Shown here: positions 4,241-63,642 of the stretch, piece after piece | Layout of the letters: each line of letters opens with the position of its first letter | Position numbering within the stretch: the first letter of the stretch is position 1 | Assembly: GCA_021771915.1 (NCBI GenBank) | Contig: JAETNY010000009.1 | Span: 40,038-104,037, forward strand | DNA from: Bacillota bacterium | Lineage (GTDB): Bacteria; Bacillota; Dehalobacteriia; UBA4068; UBA4997 | Direction of reading: 5' to 3' | Length of the DNA: 64,000 nucleotides | Program-made: the position numbers and the translations under genes | Notes under the pieces: model-generated | What the model saw: the letters and a program-made list of their open reading frames with translations, nothing else | What the model was told of the DNA's origin: nothing | The model's database searches: none

Positions 4241-6125
4241 TTGGCTGTTCTGGCATAGTGCTGTTATAATGAATTTGTACGTTTTCAGGTACATTACTTT
4301 CCGCATTTTTAATTTTTAACCAGTCTTCCTCTGTGCCCTCATAATACATATCTGTTAGGTTTTTTGCCCATACAAACATGGTTTCAGGAAAAGCACATTC
4401 CACAACGCTTTTTGGTATATAGATTTCGTTTAAAGCATCAGCCATAAAAGCACTTTCGATAATAAATACGCTATCAGGAACAACGTAAATTTTGTTTGTA
4501 TTTGCATCAAAATATTGAATTAAAGTAGTTTTATCTTTGTCAAATAAGACCCCATTTTCTATACAATAATTATCATTATTGGTATTTAATAAAACTTCCG
4601 TTAATTTAGGACAACCAGACAAGGCACCAATATAAATTTTTTCAACACTTGCCGGAATTGAAACACTAACAAGATTGTTGCAACCATTAAAACAAAAATC
4701 ACCTATTTCAAGTAAACCCTCCGGTAAAATTATTTTAGTCAAATTTTCCTTGTCTGTAAATGCAAATGGAGCAATATATTTTACAGCAGTTCCCTTAATT
4801 TCCGACGGAATATCAGCAACCGTAACGCCAACATCACAACCTGTTATAGTATTGGTTGCTTTAATAAAATAAATATTGCCTCCCACAACAGGATATAATA
4901 ATTCAGGCTCAGGATAATCTGTATAATCATAAGAATAGCCAAATAAATCATCTAATGAATAACCGCTTTTAGATAATAGTGTGCTTAATTCTTTTTCACT
5001 GCCCTCATAAGTTATATCCAGATTACTGTTAGTATCCAAGGACTGTAAACCAATACTTTTTATGCCTTTGTGCATAGTCAAATATCTTAAATTGCTGCAA
5101 TTATAAAATACATGATTGCCTATTTGGGTTACAGGTACATCATCAATACTTTTAGGTATAACAACAGAAGTAACAGTATCATCACAGCCAACTATAATAC
5201 CTGTTGCTTTATCAAAATACATATATCCACCAGATACTGCAACTTTTTCATATGATGAGAAATCTTCACTCGCAAAAGAAATATTGACATTTTTCAAAAC
5301 ATCATCAACCGTGTCCATCACATTTATTTTTGCCCATTCTGCTCGAGAACCTAAATAATTAATATTTTTTAAATCAGATGCAGCAAATGCAGAACCATAA
5401 ATTCTGGTAATAGTTGCTGGCACAGTAATATCAGCCAGCTTATAACAATTTGCAAATACACTTCTTGAAAAGCCCATAAATCCTTCAGGGAAATTAATAT
5501 TTTCTAAATTTCTACAATCATAAAATGCAGATTGATTAATCATTGTACAAGAGATTGGTAATTTAACACTGGTTAATTGATTACATCTATTAAATGCATC
5601 ATGATTTATGGTTGTTACAGTGTCTGGAACTGCATATATTCCTGTTTTACCTATTGGACATCTTAACAAAATAGTTTTATCTTTATTAAATAAAACACCA
5701 TTTTCAGTAGAAAAATCAGAATTTGAGGAGGATACCATAATTTCTTTTAACTTAGGACACCCTGAAAAAACACCACTGACCTCATTTCCCCCAATGCTAT
5801 TTACAGTAGCAGGTATGCTAACCATATAGAGATTATCGCAACCAGCAAAGGCATTTTTACCAATAACTTTTACACCATTATAAACCGTAACAACTGTAAT
5901 ATCGTCACGATATGCGGCCCAAGGTTGCGTTTCTAATGTATAATCTGGCATTGCCGCATTAATTTGTCCCTCATATTTGTAAATTTCCAGATTGCCCTCA
6001 CTGTTTAACTGCCAACTTATGTCTCCGGATAGACCACTGGCAACAGTGGCCGCCCAGGCCGCAGGCGCCATACTTAGCGCCAGCAAAAATGCCAGCGCCA
6101 GCACGGCAAAAATTTTCTTTTTCAT
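3066..6125 (-). CDS. Cell-surface protein with BspA-type leucine-rich repeats, a Big_2 domain, a Listeria-Bacteroides repeat, a G/S/T/P linker and three SLH domains
   Basis: 1019 aa with a signal peptide (MKKKIFAVLALAFLLALSMAPAAWA). The LRR_5-like repeats are AT-rich (roughly 4300-5900). The C-terminal 390 aa, including the SLH motifs FADVQNNAWYSEAIAYVYNKGMMNG.., is paralogous to the 56725..59055 protein. Confidence 0.85.
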   Translation of the reverse strand: MKKKIFAVLALAFLLALSMAPAAWAATVASGLSGDISWQLNSEGNLEIYKYEGQINAAMPDYTLETQPWAAYRDDITVVTVYNGVKVIGKNAFAGCDNLYMVSIPATVNSIGGNEVSGVFSGCPKLKEIMVSSSNSDFSTENGVLFNKDKTILLRCPIGKTGIYAVPDTVTTINHDAFNRCNQLTSVKLPISCTMINQSAFYDCRNLENINFPEGFMGFSRSVFANCYKLADITVPATITRIYGSAFAASDLKNINYLGSRAEWAKINVMDTVDDVLKNVNISFASEDFSSYEKVAVSGGYMYFDKATGIIVGCDDTVTSVVIPKSIDDVPVTQIGNHVFYNCSNLRYLTMHKGIKSIGLQSLDTNSNLDITYEGSEKELSTLLSKSGYSLDDLFGYSYDYTDYPEPELLYPVVGGNIYFIKATNTITGCDVGVTVADIPSEIKGTAVKYIAPFAFTDKENLTKIILPEGLLEIGDFCFNGCNNLVSVSIPASVEKIYIGALSGCPKLTEVLLNTNNDNYCIENGVLFDKDKTTLIQYFDANTNKIYVVPDSVFIIESAFMADALNEIYIPKSVVECAFPETMFVWAKNLTDMYYEGTEEDWLKIKNAESNVPENVQIHYNSTMPEQPTNIPVTGVTLDKTALNLEVGGTATLTATVAPANATNKNIMFISSNAKVATVDKDGKVTAVGKGAAIITATAGDKKATCAVTVTADKVYTITFDTDGGTLAEGITNPDYVIKGETYKMPTATKSRYTLTAWAIGDKDSENKVKANDVYTFTADTTVYAIWQYNGGGGSHGGSSRPSGTTTTKPGTTEKPGDTNKPGTTIDNNKTVTAANVNNKFADVQNNAWYSEAIAYVYNKGMMNGTDAGKFEPDATTTRAMLVTMLFRLEGEPKAGAADFSDVASGQWFSEAIAWAAANGVVNGYKDGTFAPNDMITREQLAAVLYRFAQFKGYDVSVKGSLSNFSDSGSVSDWAQEAMQWAVGAGIINGDNGALKPAGNATRAEVAMMLMRFCENVAK

Positions 6126-33557: not shown

Positions 33558-33687
33558 TAAATTTAATATATAGCTAGTATTTTATGGAGGTATTGTTATG
33601 CTGGACAATTTTAATGAACTGAACGCCAATAAACTGAACGATGAAAATTTAGATATGATGAGTGGAATTCTACTGGAGGAACAAATA

Positions 33688-34584
33688 ATGAATAATATCC
33701 TGTCTGAAAACCAGGAGGCTCGCCTGTTATCCGGCAAAGAGGTGGCCGCCGCCATTATGGACGATAATCTGGCGCGCGCAAACAATTTGCAGAGGCATGG
33801 CTGCAACCCCACCCTGGCTATTTTTCGCATTGGGGAACGCCCGGACGATATTTACTATGAGAACTCTATTAAACGCCATTGTGAGAAAGTCGGCGTGCGC
33901 TGCCAGACGCTGGCGTTGCCGACCAATATCCGGGAAGATGAACTTGCCGCCATGCTCACCCAAACCTCACAGGACCATTCCATTCATGGCATTTTCTTCT
34001 TCAGCCCCCTGCCCCATCAGCTGAATGAAACCTATCTGCGCAGTCTTATAAACCCGGCCAAGGACGTGGATTGCCTGTCCCGTGCCGCCCAGGCCGAGTT
34101 ATACTTCGGCGACTCCGCCCAGGGATTTGCGCCCTGTACCGCTGCCGCCGTTATGGAAATGCTGCGCTATTATCAAATTCCGCTGGTTGGCAAGCAGGTA
34201 GTCGTTTTAGGACGCTCACTGGTGGTGGGCCGGCCGCTGGCTATGCTGCTGTTACATGCCAATGCCACCGTGACTATTGCTCACTCCAAAAGCGAAAACC
34301 TGTCGCAGGTTTGCTGGCAGGCGGATATTGTGGTAGCCGCCGTGGGTAAACCGCGGCTGGTGCAAGGCGGCTGGCTGCGCCCCGGTCAGGTGGTTATTGA
34401 CGTTGGCGCTAATGACGACCCGGATAACGGCGGCAAAATGTGCGGCGACGTGGATTTCAACGCCGCCAAAGGTATGGTCAGCGCCATTACACCGGTACCG
34501 GGCGGCGTTGGTCTGGTAACTACCGCTATCCTCTGCCGCCATGTAATTGAGGCCGCAGAAAGGCAGGTTGGCATAAATGCCTGA
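33688..34584 (+). CDS. folD: Bifunctional methylenetetrahydrofolate dehydrogenase / methenyl-THF cyclohydrolase
   Basis: ..LLSGKEVAAAIMDD.., GFAPCTAAAVMEML, VVVLGRSLVVGRPLAMLL, TPVPGGVGLVTTAIL. GGAGGAA Shine-Dalgarno before the ATG at 33688. An alternative upstream start at 33598 also has a Shine-Dalgarno. Confidence 0.88.
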   Translation: MNNILSENQEARLLSGKEVAAAIMDDNLARANNLQRHGCNPTLAIFRIGERPDDIYYENSIKRHCEKVGVRCQTLALPTNIREDELAAMLTQTSQDHSIHGIFFFSPLPHQLNETYLRSLINPAKDVDCLSRAAQAELYFGDSAQGFAPCTAAAVMEMLRYYQIPLVGKQVVVLGRSLVVGRPLAMLLLHANATVTIAHSKSENLSQVCWQADIVVAAVGKPRLVQGGWLRPGQVVIDVGANDDPDNGGKMCGDVDFNAAKGMVSAITPVPGGVGLVTTAILCRHVIEAAERQVGINA

Positions 34585-37516: not shown

Positions 37517-37731
37517 AATATGACAATTTAAGCTTTGGCAGCGGTTAAAAGATTTTTTTATTTTTGTCAACTTTACAGAAAAAACCCTTGACTTTAATCA
37601 GGCATAGTGCTATACTGAAACAAGTATTCAAGATAATAGCTTATTACGCGCAATAAACCAGAAGTTGATTGATTTGGCGATATTTGTTCATTTTCTATGG
37701 GTACGAAAATTTTTGACAGGAGGTACCCAAA

Positions 37732-37947
37732 ATGAATAACGGTACAGTAAAATGGTTCAACGCAGAAAAAGGATTCGGTTTCATTGCTAATGATGAAGGC
37801 GGCGATGACGTTTTCGTACATTTCTCTGCCATTCAGACTGACGGCTATCGCACTCTGGACGAGGGACAGAAAGTTACTTTTGAAGTTGAAGCTGACCCAA
37901 AAAACCCCAGCAAACTGCGCGCAGCTAATGTTTGCAAAGTTGGCTAA
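37732..37947 (+). CDS. Cold-shock protein (CspA family)
   Basis: [35 protein letters not shown]. Confidence 0.95.
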
Positions 37948-37974
37948 ACCAGCTATTTAATTAAACAAAATACA

Positions 37975-38010
37975 AAGGAACTGTTGAAAATCTTCAACAG
38001 TTCCTTTTTT
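37975..38010 (+). terminator. Rho-independent terminator after csp
   Basis: aaggaactgttgaa-aatc-ttcaacagttcctt followed by TTTTTT. Confidence 0.8.
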
Positions 38011-44007: not shown

Positions 44008-44492
44008 ACTATCTCACCTTGAATTTTACCCTCCTCAATGGTCAGCAAACCATAAGAGGGTTTTTTTATTTCGCCCAGCGGCCGCACCGCTGAACCAGGA
44101 TTAAACAGCAAAACATCTTCATGCCATTCGCAAAGCGGAACATGCGAATGACCAAAAACCACCGCCTGCACTGCCTTATCCGCAAAAGTACGCAGTGCCG
44201 ACTGTGGTGTAGGCAAATGCGGAAACAGATGTCCATGCGTCAGGCCAATACTGACGCCATCAGCCTGCACAACCTTGGCCTCGCCCAGCTTTGAGGTCGT
44301 TTCAGAACGGTCGCAGTTGCCAGCCACCGCCTCCACACTGGCAATCTTCTGCAATTCCGGCAACAGACACAGGTCTGTCCAATCGCCGGCATGCAAAATC
44401 AAATCTGGCTTTTGCTCCGCCAGCAGCGTCAAAACCCTGGGCTGGGGAGAACAGAACTGCCAGTGCGTATCCGAAAGTACTGCTATTTTCAT
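43992..44492 (-). CDS. YfcE-like metallophosphoesterase
   Basis: [11 protein letters not shown]...HAGDWTD...GNCD...GHSHVP. Confidence 0.85.
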
Positions 44493-44686
44493 AATTTAAT
44501 CACATTAGCAGCCTGTGGGCCACGCGCGCCCTCAATCTCGTCAAATTCCACTTCCTGGCCTTCATCTAATGTTTTAAAACCGTCCGATTGGATAGCCGAG
44601 TAATGCACAAATACATCACTGCCACCCTCACGTTCAATAAAACCGAAGCCTTTTTCCGCGTTAAACCACTTAACTTTGCCTTTCAT
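44489..44686 (-). CDS. Cold-shock protein (CspA family), paralog of 37732..37947
   Basis: [33 protein letters not shown]. Confidence 0.9.
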
Positions 44687-45130
44687 AACCAGCAAAAAAC
44701 CTCCTTAAAAACCTATACGGCTACAAAATTTACAGCTAATATTATAGCGGATTTGCCAAAAGTTTGCAAGCACTATGCGTAAAAGTTTATCGACAATTTT
44801 AGGCTTATGACGCCTTATCCGTCCTGCTCCAGGGGCTTATATAGCCCTCCCGTTTTATCGACTGTTTCTTACATTATTTTTGTAAAAAAATTTAAAAAGT
44901 TTCTACAAAAATGTTGCAATTTGTTTATGTATAGGTTATAATATACCCAACGATAAAAACAGACTATCCTTTTGGATAGTTTGACAAAAAAATTAGACGT
45001 ATTGTTTAATGGTTTTGAATATTTTTAACAGTTTATATTCTCCCCTTGCACTTTACGAAAATGTTAGCGCAGGCTATTGGGAATTATAAGCTGTCAGCAT
45101 TAAAAAAACATAGAAGGAGGTTTAAAGAAG

Positions 45131-45406
45131 ATGGCATTTACAGACAAAACCCTGGTATGCAAAGAATGTGGCGAGGAATTCCTGTTTTCGGCTTCGGAAC
45201 AAGAGTTTTATGCCGAAAAAGGCTTTCAAAACGAGCCTGCGCGCTGTCCGCACTGCCGGGCTATCCGTAAACAACAGAGAAATGCTGGCCGTGAAATGTT
45301 CACAGTTATTTGCGCTGATTGCGGCACAGAAGCCCAAGTACCTTTTAAACCGGTAAATGAACGCCCGGTTTACTGCCGCGATTGCTATAATAGACATCAG
45401 GCCTAA
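45131..45406 (+). CDS. Zinc-ribbon protein with tandem CxxC pairs (zf-trcl-like)
   Basis: TLVCKECGEEFLFSASEQEFYAEKGFQNEPARCPHCR ... CADCG..CRDCY. Confidence 0.6.
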   Translation: MAFTDKTLVCKECGEEFLFSASEQEFYAEKGFQNEPARCPHCRAIRKQQRNAGREMFTVICADCGTEAQVPFKPVNERPVYCRDCYNRHQA

Positions 45407-45484: not shown

Positions 45485-45588
45485 GTGAACACTTAAAAAT
45501 ATACTAATATTTTTCTCCTCGCCTGCATATTCTGCAATAAGCCGGCGTTATGGCTACTTTCAAGAGAGGAGGCGCTTTTTTGCAGCTT

Positions 45589-46137
45589 GGAGAAATTATA
45601 CTATTAGGGGTGGCGCTTTCCATGGACGCCTTTGCCGTTTCCGCAGTCAGCGCCATGACAATTAAAAATATTCAGCCCCGGGATATGCTGCTGCTGGCCG
45701 CAGCCTTTGGGCTTTTTCAAGGTCTGATGCCGCTGATTGGGTATTTTGCCGGCACAATTTTTTGGTCTGGGCATTTGGCCAATCTATTAGCCTGCGCACT
45801 GCTTTGTCTGGTGGGCAGCAAAATGCTAACTGACAGCCTGCTGCACCCAACTGAAGCCATAATTTGCCTTACTCCTCGCCTGGTACTGCTGCAAGCCATC
45901 GCCACCAGCATTGACGCACTGGCGGTGGGCGTTAGCCTGACGGCGGCCGGACTGGGTCAAACCCCGGGCACAGCTCTGAACATCTGGCAGGCTGCGGCTA
46001 TCATTGCCGCCTGCACATTCAGCCTTTGCCTGCTGGCAGTGCAGCTGGGCAGGTTTTGCGGCCGACGCCTGGCCGATAAAGCCGGATTGGCCGGCGGTCT
46101 TATCTTAATTGGCATTGGCCTGAAAATGCTGGCCTGA
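45589..46137 (+). CDS. mntP: Manganese efflux pump MntP
   Basis: LLGVALSMDAFAVS.. and the repeated ALAVGVSL. Probable TTG start at 45589, 6 nt after a GGAGG Shine-Dalgarno. The ORF track's ATG at 45550 overlaps that Shine-Dalgarno. Confidence 0.8.
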   Translation, partial: GEIILLGVALSMDAFAVSAVSAMTIKNIQPRDMLLLAAAFGLFQGLMPLIGYFAGTIFWSGHLANLLACALLCLVGSKMLTDSLLHPTEAIICLTPRLVLLQAIATSIDALAVGVSLTAAGLGQTPGTALNIWQAAAIIAACTFSLCLLAVQLGRFCGRRLADKAGLAGGLILIGIGLKMLA

Positions 46138-46209
46138 GCAATCTTGACAAGCCCCCAAATACGGCTTATAATAAAACAAATCCATTATCAGAACAGTAAG
46201 GAAAAGATT

Positions 46210-46917
46210 ATGCGAACAGAAAGATACCAGCAGAAGACATTTTTCGGTACAGGCCTGCCGCTGTTTGCAGCCGCGCTGCCTTTCCTGCTGGCGTCACTGT
46301 ACCTTCTGCTTAAACAAACCCCACTCCCACTCTGCATACTGCTGCTGACCATAGGGTTGCTGTTTATCATGGCCGGCGTTTGGCAGACCAAACGGAATAA
46401 CGCGCAGCTTTTGCAGTTTGTTCGCCAAAATTCAACTTTTACGCACCAATGCCAACCGTCCCTGAAAATCGACAGCCTGCTGCACAATCTGCAACAGCAG
46501 GCGTTTGAGTTGACTGAATATCCCTTTGGCAATTATCACGCCTATCGGCAATTGGATAAGAAACACGGCTGCCATTTTTTTCTGGCCAACAATAACGCGC
46601 CGGATTGCCCGGAAACCGAAGAATATTCCAAATTATTCATTAAAACCGTTTTTGAAACCGGACTGAGCGCCGGCAACCGCTATCTGTTAAATCTGGAATA
46701 TGGCGCGGAAATAGCAAAAAACGCGCCGGAATATATCAAAGTTGCTCGCGACGGTTTTATGTGTGATAAAAGCGGCACCCCTTTTGGTTTTCGTCTGGCC
46801 TATGATACCAAAAGCAATGTTCTTTATTGGGCAGAAGCCGTCACGGACATTGACTGGCACAAAAGTGAGGTTATGGCCATTTATACCGCCAAACTGCTGC
46901 AAAAGCTTTTTTCATAA
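46210..46917 (+). CDS. Hypothetical membrane protein (2 transmembrane segments)
   Basis: AAGGAAAAG Shine-Dalgarno before the ATG at 46210. Confidence 0.45.
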   Translation: MRTERYQQKTFFGTGLPLFAAALPFLLASLYLLLKQTPLPLCILLLTIGLLFIMAGVWQTKRNNAQLLQFVRQNSTFTHQCQPSLKIDSLLHNLQQQAFELTEYPFGNYHAYRQLDKKHGCHFFLANNNAPDCPETEEYSKLFIKTVFETGLSAGNRYLLNLEYGAEIAKNAPEYIKVARDGFMCDKSGTPFGFRLAYDTKSNVLYWAEAVTDIDWHKSEVMAIYTAKLLQKLFS

Positions 46918-62508: not shown

Positions 62509-62544
62509 ATAAATATACCATATTAAAGATAAGAGGTGAAAATA

Positions 62545-63642
62545 ATGCTTAGTGATTGGAAAGCACCGCTTGAAAAGGCGCTGACTAAGCTGCATGAGCT
62601 ACAAAAAGCTCTGGATATGACATGAAAGGAACAGGAGGCCGCACGGCTGGAAGAAGCAGCGGCCGCCCCCGACTTTTGGAATAATCAGGAAGCCGCCCAG
62701 AGTCTGCTGCAAAAGCTGACCCAACTTAAGGCGGATATCAGCAACTATCAAACGCTGGCCAGCCAGCAGGAGGATTTGCAAACCCTTTGGGAGTTGGCCT
62801 GTGAGGAACAGGACGACAATTTGGAGCCGGAAATTGAACAAGGCTGCCATGCGCTGCAAAAGGCCTTGGATAAGCTGGAAATACAGGTTTTGTTCAGCGG
62901 CCCTTATGACGACCATGATTGCATTTTGACCCTGCATGCCGGCGCCGGCGGCACCGAAGCCCAGGACTGGGCGGATATGTTATACCGTATGTATAGCCGT
63001 TTTTGTGAAAAGAACGGTTTTCGCTGTGAGGTTATGGATTTTCTGGACGGTGAAGAAGCCGGCTTGAAAAGTATTACGCTGGCGATTGAGGGCGCGCATG
63101 CTTACGGTCATTTTCGCGCGGAAAAGGGCGTGCACCGGCTGGTGCGTATCTCGCCTTTTGACGCTTCTGCGCGCCGCCATACCTCCTTTGCTTCGGTTGA
63201 TGTTATGCCCCAGGTACAGGAGGATAATGAGGTGGAAATTAACCCGGACGAACTGAAAATTGATACCTACCGCAGCGGCGGCGCCGGCGGTCAGCATGTT
63301 AACAAGACGGACTCTGCCGTGCGCATTACCCACCTGCCGACCGGCATTGTGGTGCAATGCCAGGACGAGCGCTCACAGTTTAACAACAAAGACCGCGCCA
63401 TGAAGCTTTTAAAAGCGCGCCTGCTGGAAGAAAAAGTTAAACAGCGCGAACAGGAACTGGCTGAACTACGCGGTGAACATGCGGAAATTGGCTGGGGCAG
63501 CCAGATACGTTCCTATGTTTTCCAGCCTTACCGTCTGGTTAAGGACCACCGCACCAATGTGGAATCCGGCAATGTGGACGCCGTGATGGACGGCGATTTA
63601 CTGCCCTTTATCAGCGGTTATCTGAAACAGTTTAAGGGCTAA
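62545..63642 (+). CDS. prfB: Peptide chain release factor 2, carrying an in-frame TGA at 62623..62625 (codon 27) with no frame change
   Basis: N-terminus MLSDWKAPLEKALTKLHELQKALDMT-[TGA]-KEQEAARLEEAAAAPDFWNNQEAAQ.. is RF2-like on both sides in the same frame. GGQ motif (RSGGAGGQHVNK) and SPF motif (RISPFD) are present. The total length of about 366 codons matches RF2. Confidence 0.8.

Follow-up and report, generated by a model that had tools for sequence, protein, structure and literature searches.

The stretch of DNA analyzed here, hereafter the window, is 64 kb of the genome of a Bacillota bacterium, and the gene in question is prfB, which codes for RF2 (peptide chain release factor 2) and carries a TGA stop codon in frame at codon 27 (Table 1). 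Reading through this codon gives a product of 365 residues, in which the parts before and after the TGA are both RF2 sequence in one frame. With the TGA masked, the product scores 525.3 bits on the NCBIfam prfB profile TIGR00020 (cutoff 370), residues 11-361 matching profile positions 3-353 of 353, and it stays under the cutoffs of the release factor 1 (RF1) models. The SPF stop-codon recognition motif (63151-63159, residue 203) and the GGQ hydrolysis motif (63286-63294, residue 248) are both present. A first-pass annotation, made from the sequence alone, had described a TGA flanked by RF2 sequence in one frame and a read-through frame containing SPF and GGQ, and both descriptions are borne out by the uninterrupted frame from ATG to TAA and by the profile match above cutoff.

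Programmed recoding has its textbook example in the autoregulation of RF2 by +1 frameshifting. The canonical prfB site, CUU UGA C with an internal SD-like AGGGGG 3 nt upstream of the slippery codon, is used by E. coli and about 64% of bacteria (PMC12421855), and in a survey of 12,753 RefSeq representative genomes its form was almost invariant, with CTTTGA in nearly every motif and 21 TTTTTGA exceptions (PMC12421855). In the window, the context of codon 27 is ACA TGA AAG. No slippery CUU U (CTTTGA) precedes the stop here or in the relatives described below, where the preceding codon varies synonymously among ACA, ACG and ACC (Thr) and is GGT or GCT in basal lineages. The sequence upstream of the TGA, CAAAAAGCTCTGGATATGACA, holds no Shine-Dalgarno (SD)-like run such as the internal AGGGGG, a GGAGG starts 9 nt 3' of the TGA, and the +1 frame after the TGA closes at the 32nd codon. 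The first-pass annotation had listed the same trinucleotide context, the lack of CUU and of an upstream SD-like element, the downstream GGAGG and a +1 stop within 32 codons, and the sequence agrees on every count. Frame continuity and the closed +1 frame exclude +1 frameshifting in this gene. As four of the five features of the canonical motif are absent (CUU, the upstream SD, a +1 open reading frame (ORF) and UGA-C), with ORF1 and ORF2 instead in the same frame and A rather than C after the stop, the window prfB falls outside that family. The annotation had also placed the TGA at the canonical autoregulatory position; an early RF2-readable stop near codon 25 is indeed present, but the exact site differs, since the TGA lies three codons 3' of the canonical shift junction, which a gapless alignment with the RF2 proteins of B. 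subtilis and Dehalobacterium formicoaceticum places at L23|D24.

Table 1 Features of the prfB locus, in positions of the window
Feature	Position	Strand	Description
prfB	62545-63642	+	ATG at 62545, TGA at codon 27, TAA at end
Shine-Dalgarno GAGGTG	62533..62538	+	6 nt 5' of the prfB ATG
prfB codons 1-26 (RF2 helix alpha-1 and linker)	62545..62622	+	26 sense codons, MLSDWKAPLEKALTKLHELQKALDMT; homologous to full-length RF2 N-termini
In-frame UGA, codon 27, proposed RF2-sensing read-through site	62623..62625	+	Codon shared as TGA by 12 loci
Extended context TGA-A-R-G-G-A, here TGAAAGGA	62623..62630	+	Invariant in alignment and codon table
prfB codons 28-365 (rest of domain 1, domains 2-4)	62626..63639	+	Same frame as codons 1-26; 338 codons
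Genuine prfB stop TAA	63640..63642	+	End of frame
GGAGG (62634-62638) and Leu35 CTG (62647-62649)	62634..62649	+	Sole candidate internal initiation site

Relatives of this prfB were found by a search of 5.8 billion proteins, and their DNA was obtained from a genome scan and twelve contig look-ups. The DNA examined covers the 64-kb window and, for the relatives, short flanks. A TGA is located exactly at codon 27 in 12 loci (the window, L001, L002, L003, L161, L164, L165, L167, L168, L173, L174 and L175), representing about nine species-level lineages and 11 distinct sequences, with RF2 identities to the window from 99% down to 72-76% (L174, L175). L001 is an independent metagenome-assembled genome (MAG) of the window's species, with an RF2 that is 99% identical and with nucleotide differences, and L003 is Ca. 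Avidehalobacter gallistercoris; every member of the TGA clade recovered is an uncultured MAG or a metagenome contig. The comparison of close relatives that the first-pass annotation had proposed thus gave TGA at this codon in 12 loci, Gly or Gln in sense-codon relatives, and the canonical CUU-UGA in cultured outgroups.

The codon-27 stop is TGA in 12 of 12 loci and TAA or TAG in none, and the G-to-A change to TAA, the preferred stop of the genome, was never fixed even though it is a single step. Directly after the TGA, every locus reads A-R-G-G-A, so that the leaky stop context UGA-A (A at position +4) is found in all 12. In the same 11 sequences, invariant sites make up 2 of 73 fourfold-degenerate third positions and 2 of 33 twofold purine-ending positions, and the chance of three unconstrained bases staying fixed at codon 27 is approximately 10^-5. 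Conservation of the TGA and of the A that follows is far beyond chance. Codon 28 is AAG in all eight lineages with Lys at that position (62626-62628 in the window, and L002, L161, L164, L165, L167, L168, L174 and L175) and AGG (Arg) in the other three; AAG accounts for only 34% of the Lys codons in the window, and two sense-codon relatives with Lys use AAA. This preference for AAG hints at a selected extended read-through context, UGA-A-R-G(-G-A). In relatives without the UGA, residue 27 is Gly, Gln, Ala, Lys or Arg. The residues DMT before the stop were considered as a nascent-peptide signal and rejected, as basal TGA lineages have NLG or NIA in their place, which indicates that DMT was inherited within one clade.

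Selection was compared on the two sides of the TGA. Pooled over ten TGA lineages, the ratio of nonsynonymous to synonymous differences per site (pN/pS) is 0.39 for codons 2-26, 0.29 for codons 28-60, 0.32 for codons 61-129 and 0.12 for codons 130-360. The corresponding ratio of substitution rates (dN/dS) is 0.07-0.23 for codons 2-26 in the closest pairs and 0.03-0.11 for codons 130-360 in pairwise comparisons, with pairwise dS among TGA lineages mostly above 1, meaning that synonymous sites are saturated. Purifying selection acts on codons 1-26 as it does on the rest of domain 1. In the N-terminal peptide, the pattern of full-length relatives is retained (MLxDWKxxxEKxxxKLxEL...), and the prfB ATG is preceded by a strong SD 6-9 nt upstream in every TGA lineage with upstream sequence recovered, indicating that translation starts at codon 1. 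In an AlphaFold model of P0004, an 82%-identical full-length relative, a helix at residues 3-22 is followed by a break at 23-24 and a second helix at 25-39, with a predicted local distance difference test (pLDDT) score of about 90 in the region. By these helix limits, the 26 codons encode the whole first helix of domain 1, and residue 27, in the first turn after the alpha1-alpha2 break, is modelled as a permissive position. As this residue is variable and lies just after the break, any inserted residue should be tolerated. A stop kept between two coding segments of the same frame, both of which are under purifying selection, is the configuration that would be expected of programmed read-through.

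Taken as a whole, the comparison indicates that this prfB is probably functional, that its full-length product would require read-through of the UGA at codon 27, and that read-through would here replace +1 frameshifting as the RF2 autoregulator. The first-pass annotation had offered UGA read-through sensing the same RF2 activity as one of its alternatives, and it is the only reading that fits all of the comparative data. From the aligned sequences, we infer the read-through event, the inserted amino acid and the autoregulatory circuit.

In the proposed mechanism, ribosomes would start at the kept SD and ATG and translate 26 codons, whereupon the UGA would enter the A site. Of the stop codons, UGA alone depends on RF2 exclusively for its recognition. 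With RF2 plentiful, a harmless 26-residue peptide, still in the exit tunnel, would be released; with RF2 scarce, the ribosome would wait, and a near-cognate tRNA could decode the UGA in frame, most likely tRNA-Trp(CCA) aided by the invariant UGA-A. Elongation would then continue to the 365-residue RF2, and because the read-through fraction would fall as RF2 rises, the circuit would act as negative feedback. In E. coli, a 3' A after UGA favors read-through by tRNA-Trp (Engelberg-Kulka 1981 and Kopelowitz 1992, both cited in PMC10540940), premature TGA codons are replaced mainly by Trp, at rates that reach about 80% in certain contexts during stress, and T at position +4 strengthens termination (PMC11126739). 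UGA read-through in B. subtilis stands at about 6% but reaches 19-54% when prfB is mutated (Karow 1998, cited in PMC7918605), which is the dependence on RF2 that such a sensor would need.

Several points weigh against this interpretation. A consensus fold of 11 sequences gave no conserved downstream RNA structure that could act as a stimulator (RNAalifold, -3.27 kcal/mol with a positive, unfavorable covariation term). When spontaneous, UGA read-through usually amounts to only a few percent, seemingly a high cost for a factor that is both abundant and essential. In addition, all 11 TGA lineages have CTG or TTG as codon 35, with GGAGG 8 nt upstream in seven of the 11, which leaves room for some internal initiation.

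This last pattern is also the starting point of the alternative that survives best, in which translation would terminate at the UGA and initiate internally or re-initiate at Leu35 behind the GGAGG, giving a split or N-terminally truncated RF2, with the 26-codon ORF serving as a leader or as a helix that re-associates. Gene callers do begin the protein at Leu35 in P0001, P0044 and P0049. However, CTG and TTG together make up 70% of the Leu codons in the window, such that the usage at codon 35 is not significant, and Leu35 is invariant in all RF2s. CTG is, moreover, a poor start codon. The downstream GGAGG pointed out in the first-pass annotation is present, yet it is mostly a by-product of Glu-Ala codons and is weak or absent in some TGA lineages and in the Gln lineages, the SD-like run being missing in L173 and L175. 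No canonical start after the TGA is conserved: the first one falls at codon 35 in L164, L165 and L175, codon 40 in L174, codon 54 in L161, codon 55 in L168, and codon 78 in the window, L002, L173 and L003, and L167 has none within 100 codons. In the upstream peptide, the sequence of helix alpha-1 is retained, and selection on it matches that on the adjacent domain; in a plain split gene, the stop would be free to drift to TAA, yet it is TGA throughout; and coupling of RF2 synthesis to termination would yield positive rather than negative feedback. We therefore consider a split or truncated RF2 unlikely.

Alternatively, a dedicated tRNA could decode the UGA efficiently and possibly without any regulatory role, either as selenocysteine, through SelB and a selenocysteine insertion sequence (SECIS), or through a suppressor or variant tRNA (with a UCA anticodon, or a tRNA-Trp with a 4-bp anticodon stem). 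The window sequence alone can fold a hairpin, GGCCGC...GCGGCC, about 11 nt after the UGA. Its stability is not significant (z = -1.8), and it was rejected as a SECIS or other stimulator, as it is not conserved, has no Rfam match and arises from Ala codons; no Rfam or SECIS match was found near the codon-27 UGA at E-values up to 10. Residue 27 is never Cys in homologues, which further argues against selenocysteine. Scans for tRNA genes in the window and 15 related loci yielded one tRNA-Leu only. A variant tRNA-Trp would modify the proposed read-through mechanism rather than replace it.

A general suppressor is at odds with how TGA is used in the rest of the window. In a greedy set of 46 non-overlapping ORFs covering 87% of the window, 31 end in TAA, 10 in TGA and 5 in TAG. 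For seven of the TGA-ended proteins, no more than a few residues separate the stop from the end of the NCBIfam profile: UvrB, a Dcm-type methyltransferase, a MATE transporter, FolD, an ECF sigma factor, a Sir2-type deacylase and MntP. The first four had been named in the first-pass annotation as evidence that TGA is a genuine stop elsewhere, correctly so. A scan for open segments joined in the same frame found no other gene in the 64-kb window convincingly split by a single TGA. TGA at profile ends and the lack of other interrupted genes indicate that no general suppressor is at work, and genome-wide UGA reassignment (codes 4 and 25) was rejected for the window, as TGA ends genes there, no other gene is split and prfB is under selection. 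Decoding by a dedicated tRNA is thus quite improbable.

A sequencing or assembly error, or a recent prfB pseudogene with an intact paralogue, which the first-pass annotation had kept as its other option and for which one nucleotide change (GGA to TGA) would be enough, is refuted by the comparative data and has next to no probability, as this TGA is shared by 12 loci of independent assemblies (including L001 of the same species and about eight further species-level lineages) at saturated synonymous divergence, the catalytic domains are under strong purifying selection at the pairwise dN/dS given above, and all full-length genes of relatives with DNA (L170, L172, L176 and L177) occupy the orthologous place, directly 5' of the transketolase genes.

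One further same-frame pair of ORFs in the window is separated by a TGA. On the plus strand at 45541-46917, the MntP-like ORF (45550..46137, ending in TGA) is followed in the same frame by an ORF with a TTG start and no NCBIfam match (46144..46917), with only the TGA and two codons between them. These are probably two genes.

Other recoding signals were considered around codon 27. An upstream hairpin, GAGCT-N6-AGCTC (codons 18-23), was rejected since it is not specific to the TGA loci, occurring also in sense-codon relatives, and would sit inside the ribosome. Judged from sequence, there was no indication of A-to-I editing of the TadA type (no UACG loop motif), transcriptional slippage (no long homopolymer) or ribosome hopping (no matching landing codon).

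The nearest cultured relatives, Dehalobacterium formicoaceticum, Zhaonella and Desulfosporosinus, have RF2s with 58-62% identity to that of the window and the canonical Leu|Asp junction, and their prfB genes are split by gene callers in the usual frameshift manner. In a neighbor-joining tree of RF2, all genes with a continuous frame form one group with 80% support, within which a core clade has 58%. The basal branches of the group are L174 and L175, both TGA lineages, and a set with Gly27 (L177, P0053 and P0061). L172, with Gly (GGC), is sister to L167/L168 with 100% support inside the core clade, and a Gln group with CAG (L170, L176 and P0005) is sister to L165/L173 with 66% in the RF2 tree; in a 944-column concatenation of RF2 and transketolase, L170 groups with L165 at 99%. 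As sense-codon lineages are nested among TGA lineages, the stop was lost secondarily at least twice. The most economical history would be one in which the ancestral +1 site was lost, the TGA was gained once or twice three codons downstream, and at least two reversions to sense followed. It appears likely that a clade of gut Peptococcaceae/Dehalobacterium-like Firmicutes swapped the +1 frameshift for programmed UGA read-through, which would make this the first natural case of regulatory read-through in a release-factor gene on a bacterial chromosome.

As a control, 157 unrelated RF2 loci from the same scans were classified, and approximately 130 were canonical CTTTGA, a count that is slightly high since the classifier also accepts a chance CTTTAA or TTTTGA upstream, as it did for L167, L172 and L177; the rest had no premature stop, and none carried an in-frame stop. 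The matches listed from the metagenome contig scan were distant RF2s only, at up to 56% identity, and were used as part of this control set.

The neighbors of prfB are secA and a split transketolase, both in the window and in all recovered relatives with sufficient flanks. At L164, a PIN-domain gene (470-889) stands upstream of the prfB-transketolase block in the place of secA, and at L161, a ParE-toxin gene (5672-5932) lies downstream of that block.

With respect to known systems, the proposed arrangement would resemble the canonical prfB motif in having an RF2-specific UGA as a premature stop about 25 codons in, a short abortive peptide, a negative feedback logic and repeated loss. The secondary loss of the codon-27 TGA resembles the recurrent loss of the frameshift motif, whose stop, like that at codon 27, is almost always TGA and never TAG (PMC12421855). 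A class-I release factor gene of giant viruses, Mimivirus R726/Megavirus mg280, likewise carries a conserved in-frame UGA to be read through, with Trp proposed and an autoregulatory interpretation; unlike the window prfB, it encodes an eRF1-type factor of a eukaryotic virus, has UGA-C and involves a second frameshift event (PMC3521657). In plant eRF1-1, the level of a termination factor is also sensed by stop read-through in its own mRNA, but there it is the normal stop that is read through, acting via nonsense-mediated decay, whereas the stop in the window is internal and its read-through would be needed to make the protein (PMC5397192).

A close bacterial likeness is prfB of 'Ca. Providencia siddallii' PSAC, in which low-level read-through of an in-frame UGA followed by A-rich sequence is presumed (PMC10540940). 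That case concerns one endosymbiont with a UGG>UGA change at a Trp codon, in a gene interpreted as decaying at the onset of a change of UGA to Trp (code 4), and 20% of PSAC genes carry an in-frame UGA (PMC10540940). In contrast, the UGA in the window stands at a Gly/Gln position and is conserved over many gut lineages that are free-living and otherwise keep to the standard code. Bacteria and phages also show leaky UGA read-through, for example UGA read as Trp in B. subtilis, which resembles the proposed mechanism in near-cognate decoding, in the favored 3' A and in its inverse relation to RF2 activity. The Q-beta A1 protein is an example of such leaky read-through. Unlike the window prfB, these cases give a minor extended product or a background error rather than the main product of an essential gene.

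No description of a prfB read-through arrangement was found in targeted literature searches. The 12,753-genome prfB survey makes no mention of any read-through variant (PMC12421855), and a comparative-genomics paper on Dehalobacteriia makes no mention of stop codons, release factors or selenocysteine.

If the proposed mechanism is true, what is selected in RF2 autoregulation would be that RF2 competes with elongation at a UGA, and not the frameshift itself. A bacterial housekeeping protein that is essential would be made only via stop read-through, with the rate of read-through itself reporting RF2 activity. These genes would also offer a natural system in which to study efficient bacterial UGA read-through, its context rules and the decoding tRNA, and they bear on how UGA reassignment begins.

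The in-frame UGA has consequences for public gene calls. Close relatives with 84-99% identity are nearly all called as N-terminally truncated proteins of 288, 312, 331 or 335 residues, and in the search of 5.8 billion proteins, full-length RF2 calls of 365 residues appeared only at 82% identity or less. Truncated calls were found for L161-L163, L164, L165, L167 and L168 and as P0001, P0002, P0010, P0012, P0044, P0049 and P0059. Their starts are the TTG, GTG or CTG on which the caller settled, including one NCBI annotation at a CTG, and this recurrent truncation arises because of the in-frame UGA. The index lists 1,098 assembly blocks for P0012, the L161 species' truncated call, so for this one species alone gene callers mis-annotate prfB, as a protein within the 288-335-residue range, in more than 1,000 public assembly blocks. 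Surveys restricted to cultured RefSeq genomes will miss prfB genes with an in-frame UGA.

Other features of the window were noted in passing. Two regions match the Rfam cspA thermoregulator, one at 37613-38007 on the plus strand with 85.6 bits, above the gathering score, and one at 44449-44789 on the minus strand with 47.5 bits, below it, the latter covering a 68-residue CspA-like ORF (44489..44695, minus strand). This Firmicute has, then, two genes for cold-shock proteins, each with a long structured leader. A stretch of approximately 1 kb from the cspA-like gene to mntP has no ORF of 100 residues or more, and in it a 91-residue Cys-rich ORF with CxxC pairs (45131-45406, plus strand) is zinc-ribbon-like. 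Finally, the FolD ORF (33598-34584, plus strand) matches FolD profiles only from about residue 40 and overlaps the next ORF by 8 nt; its true start is probably about 40 codons downstream of the first ATG.

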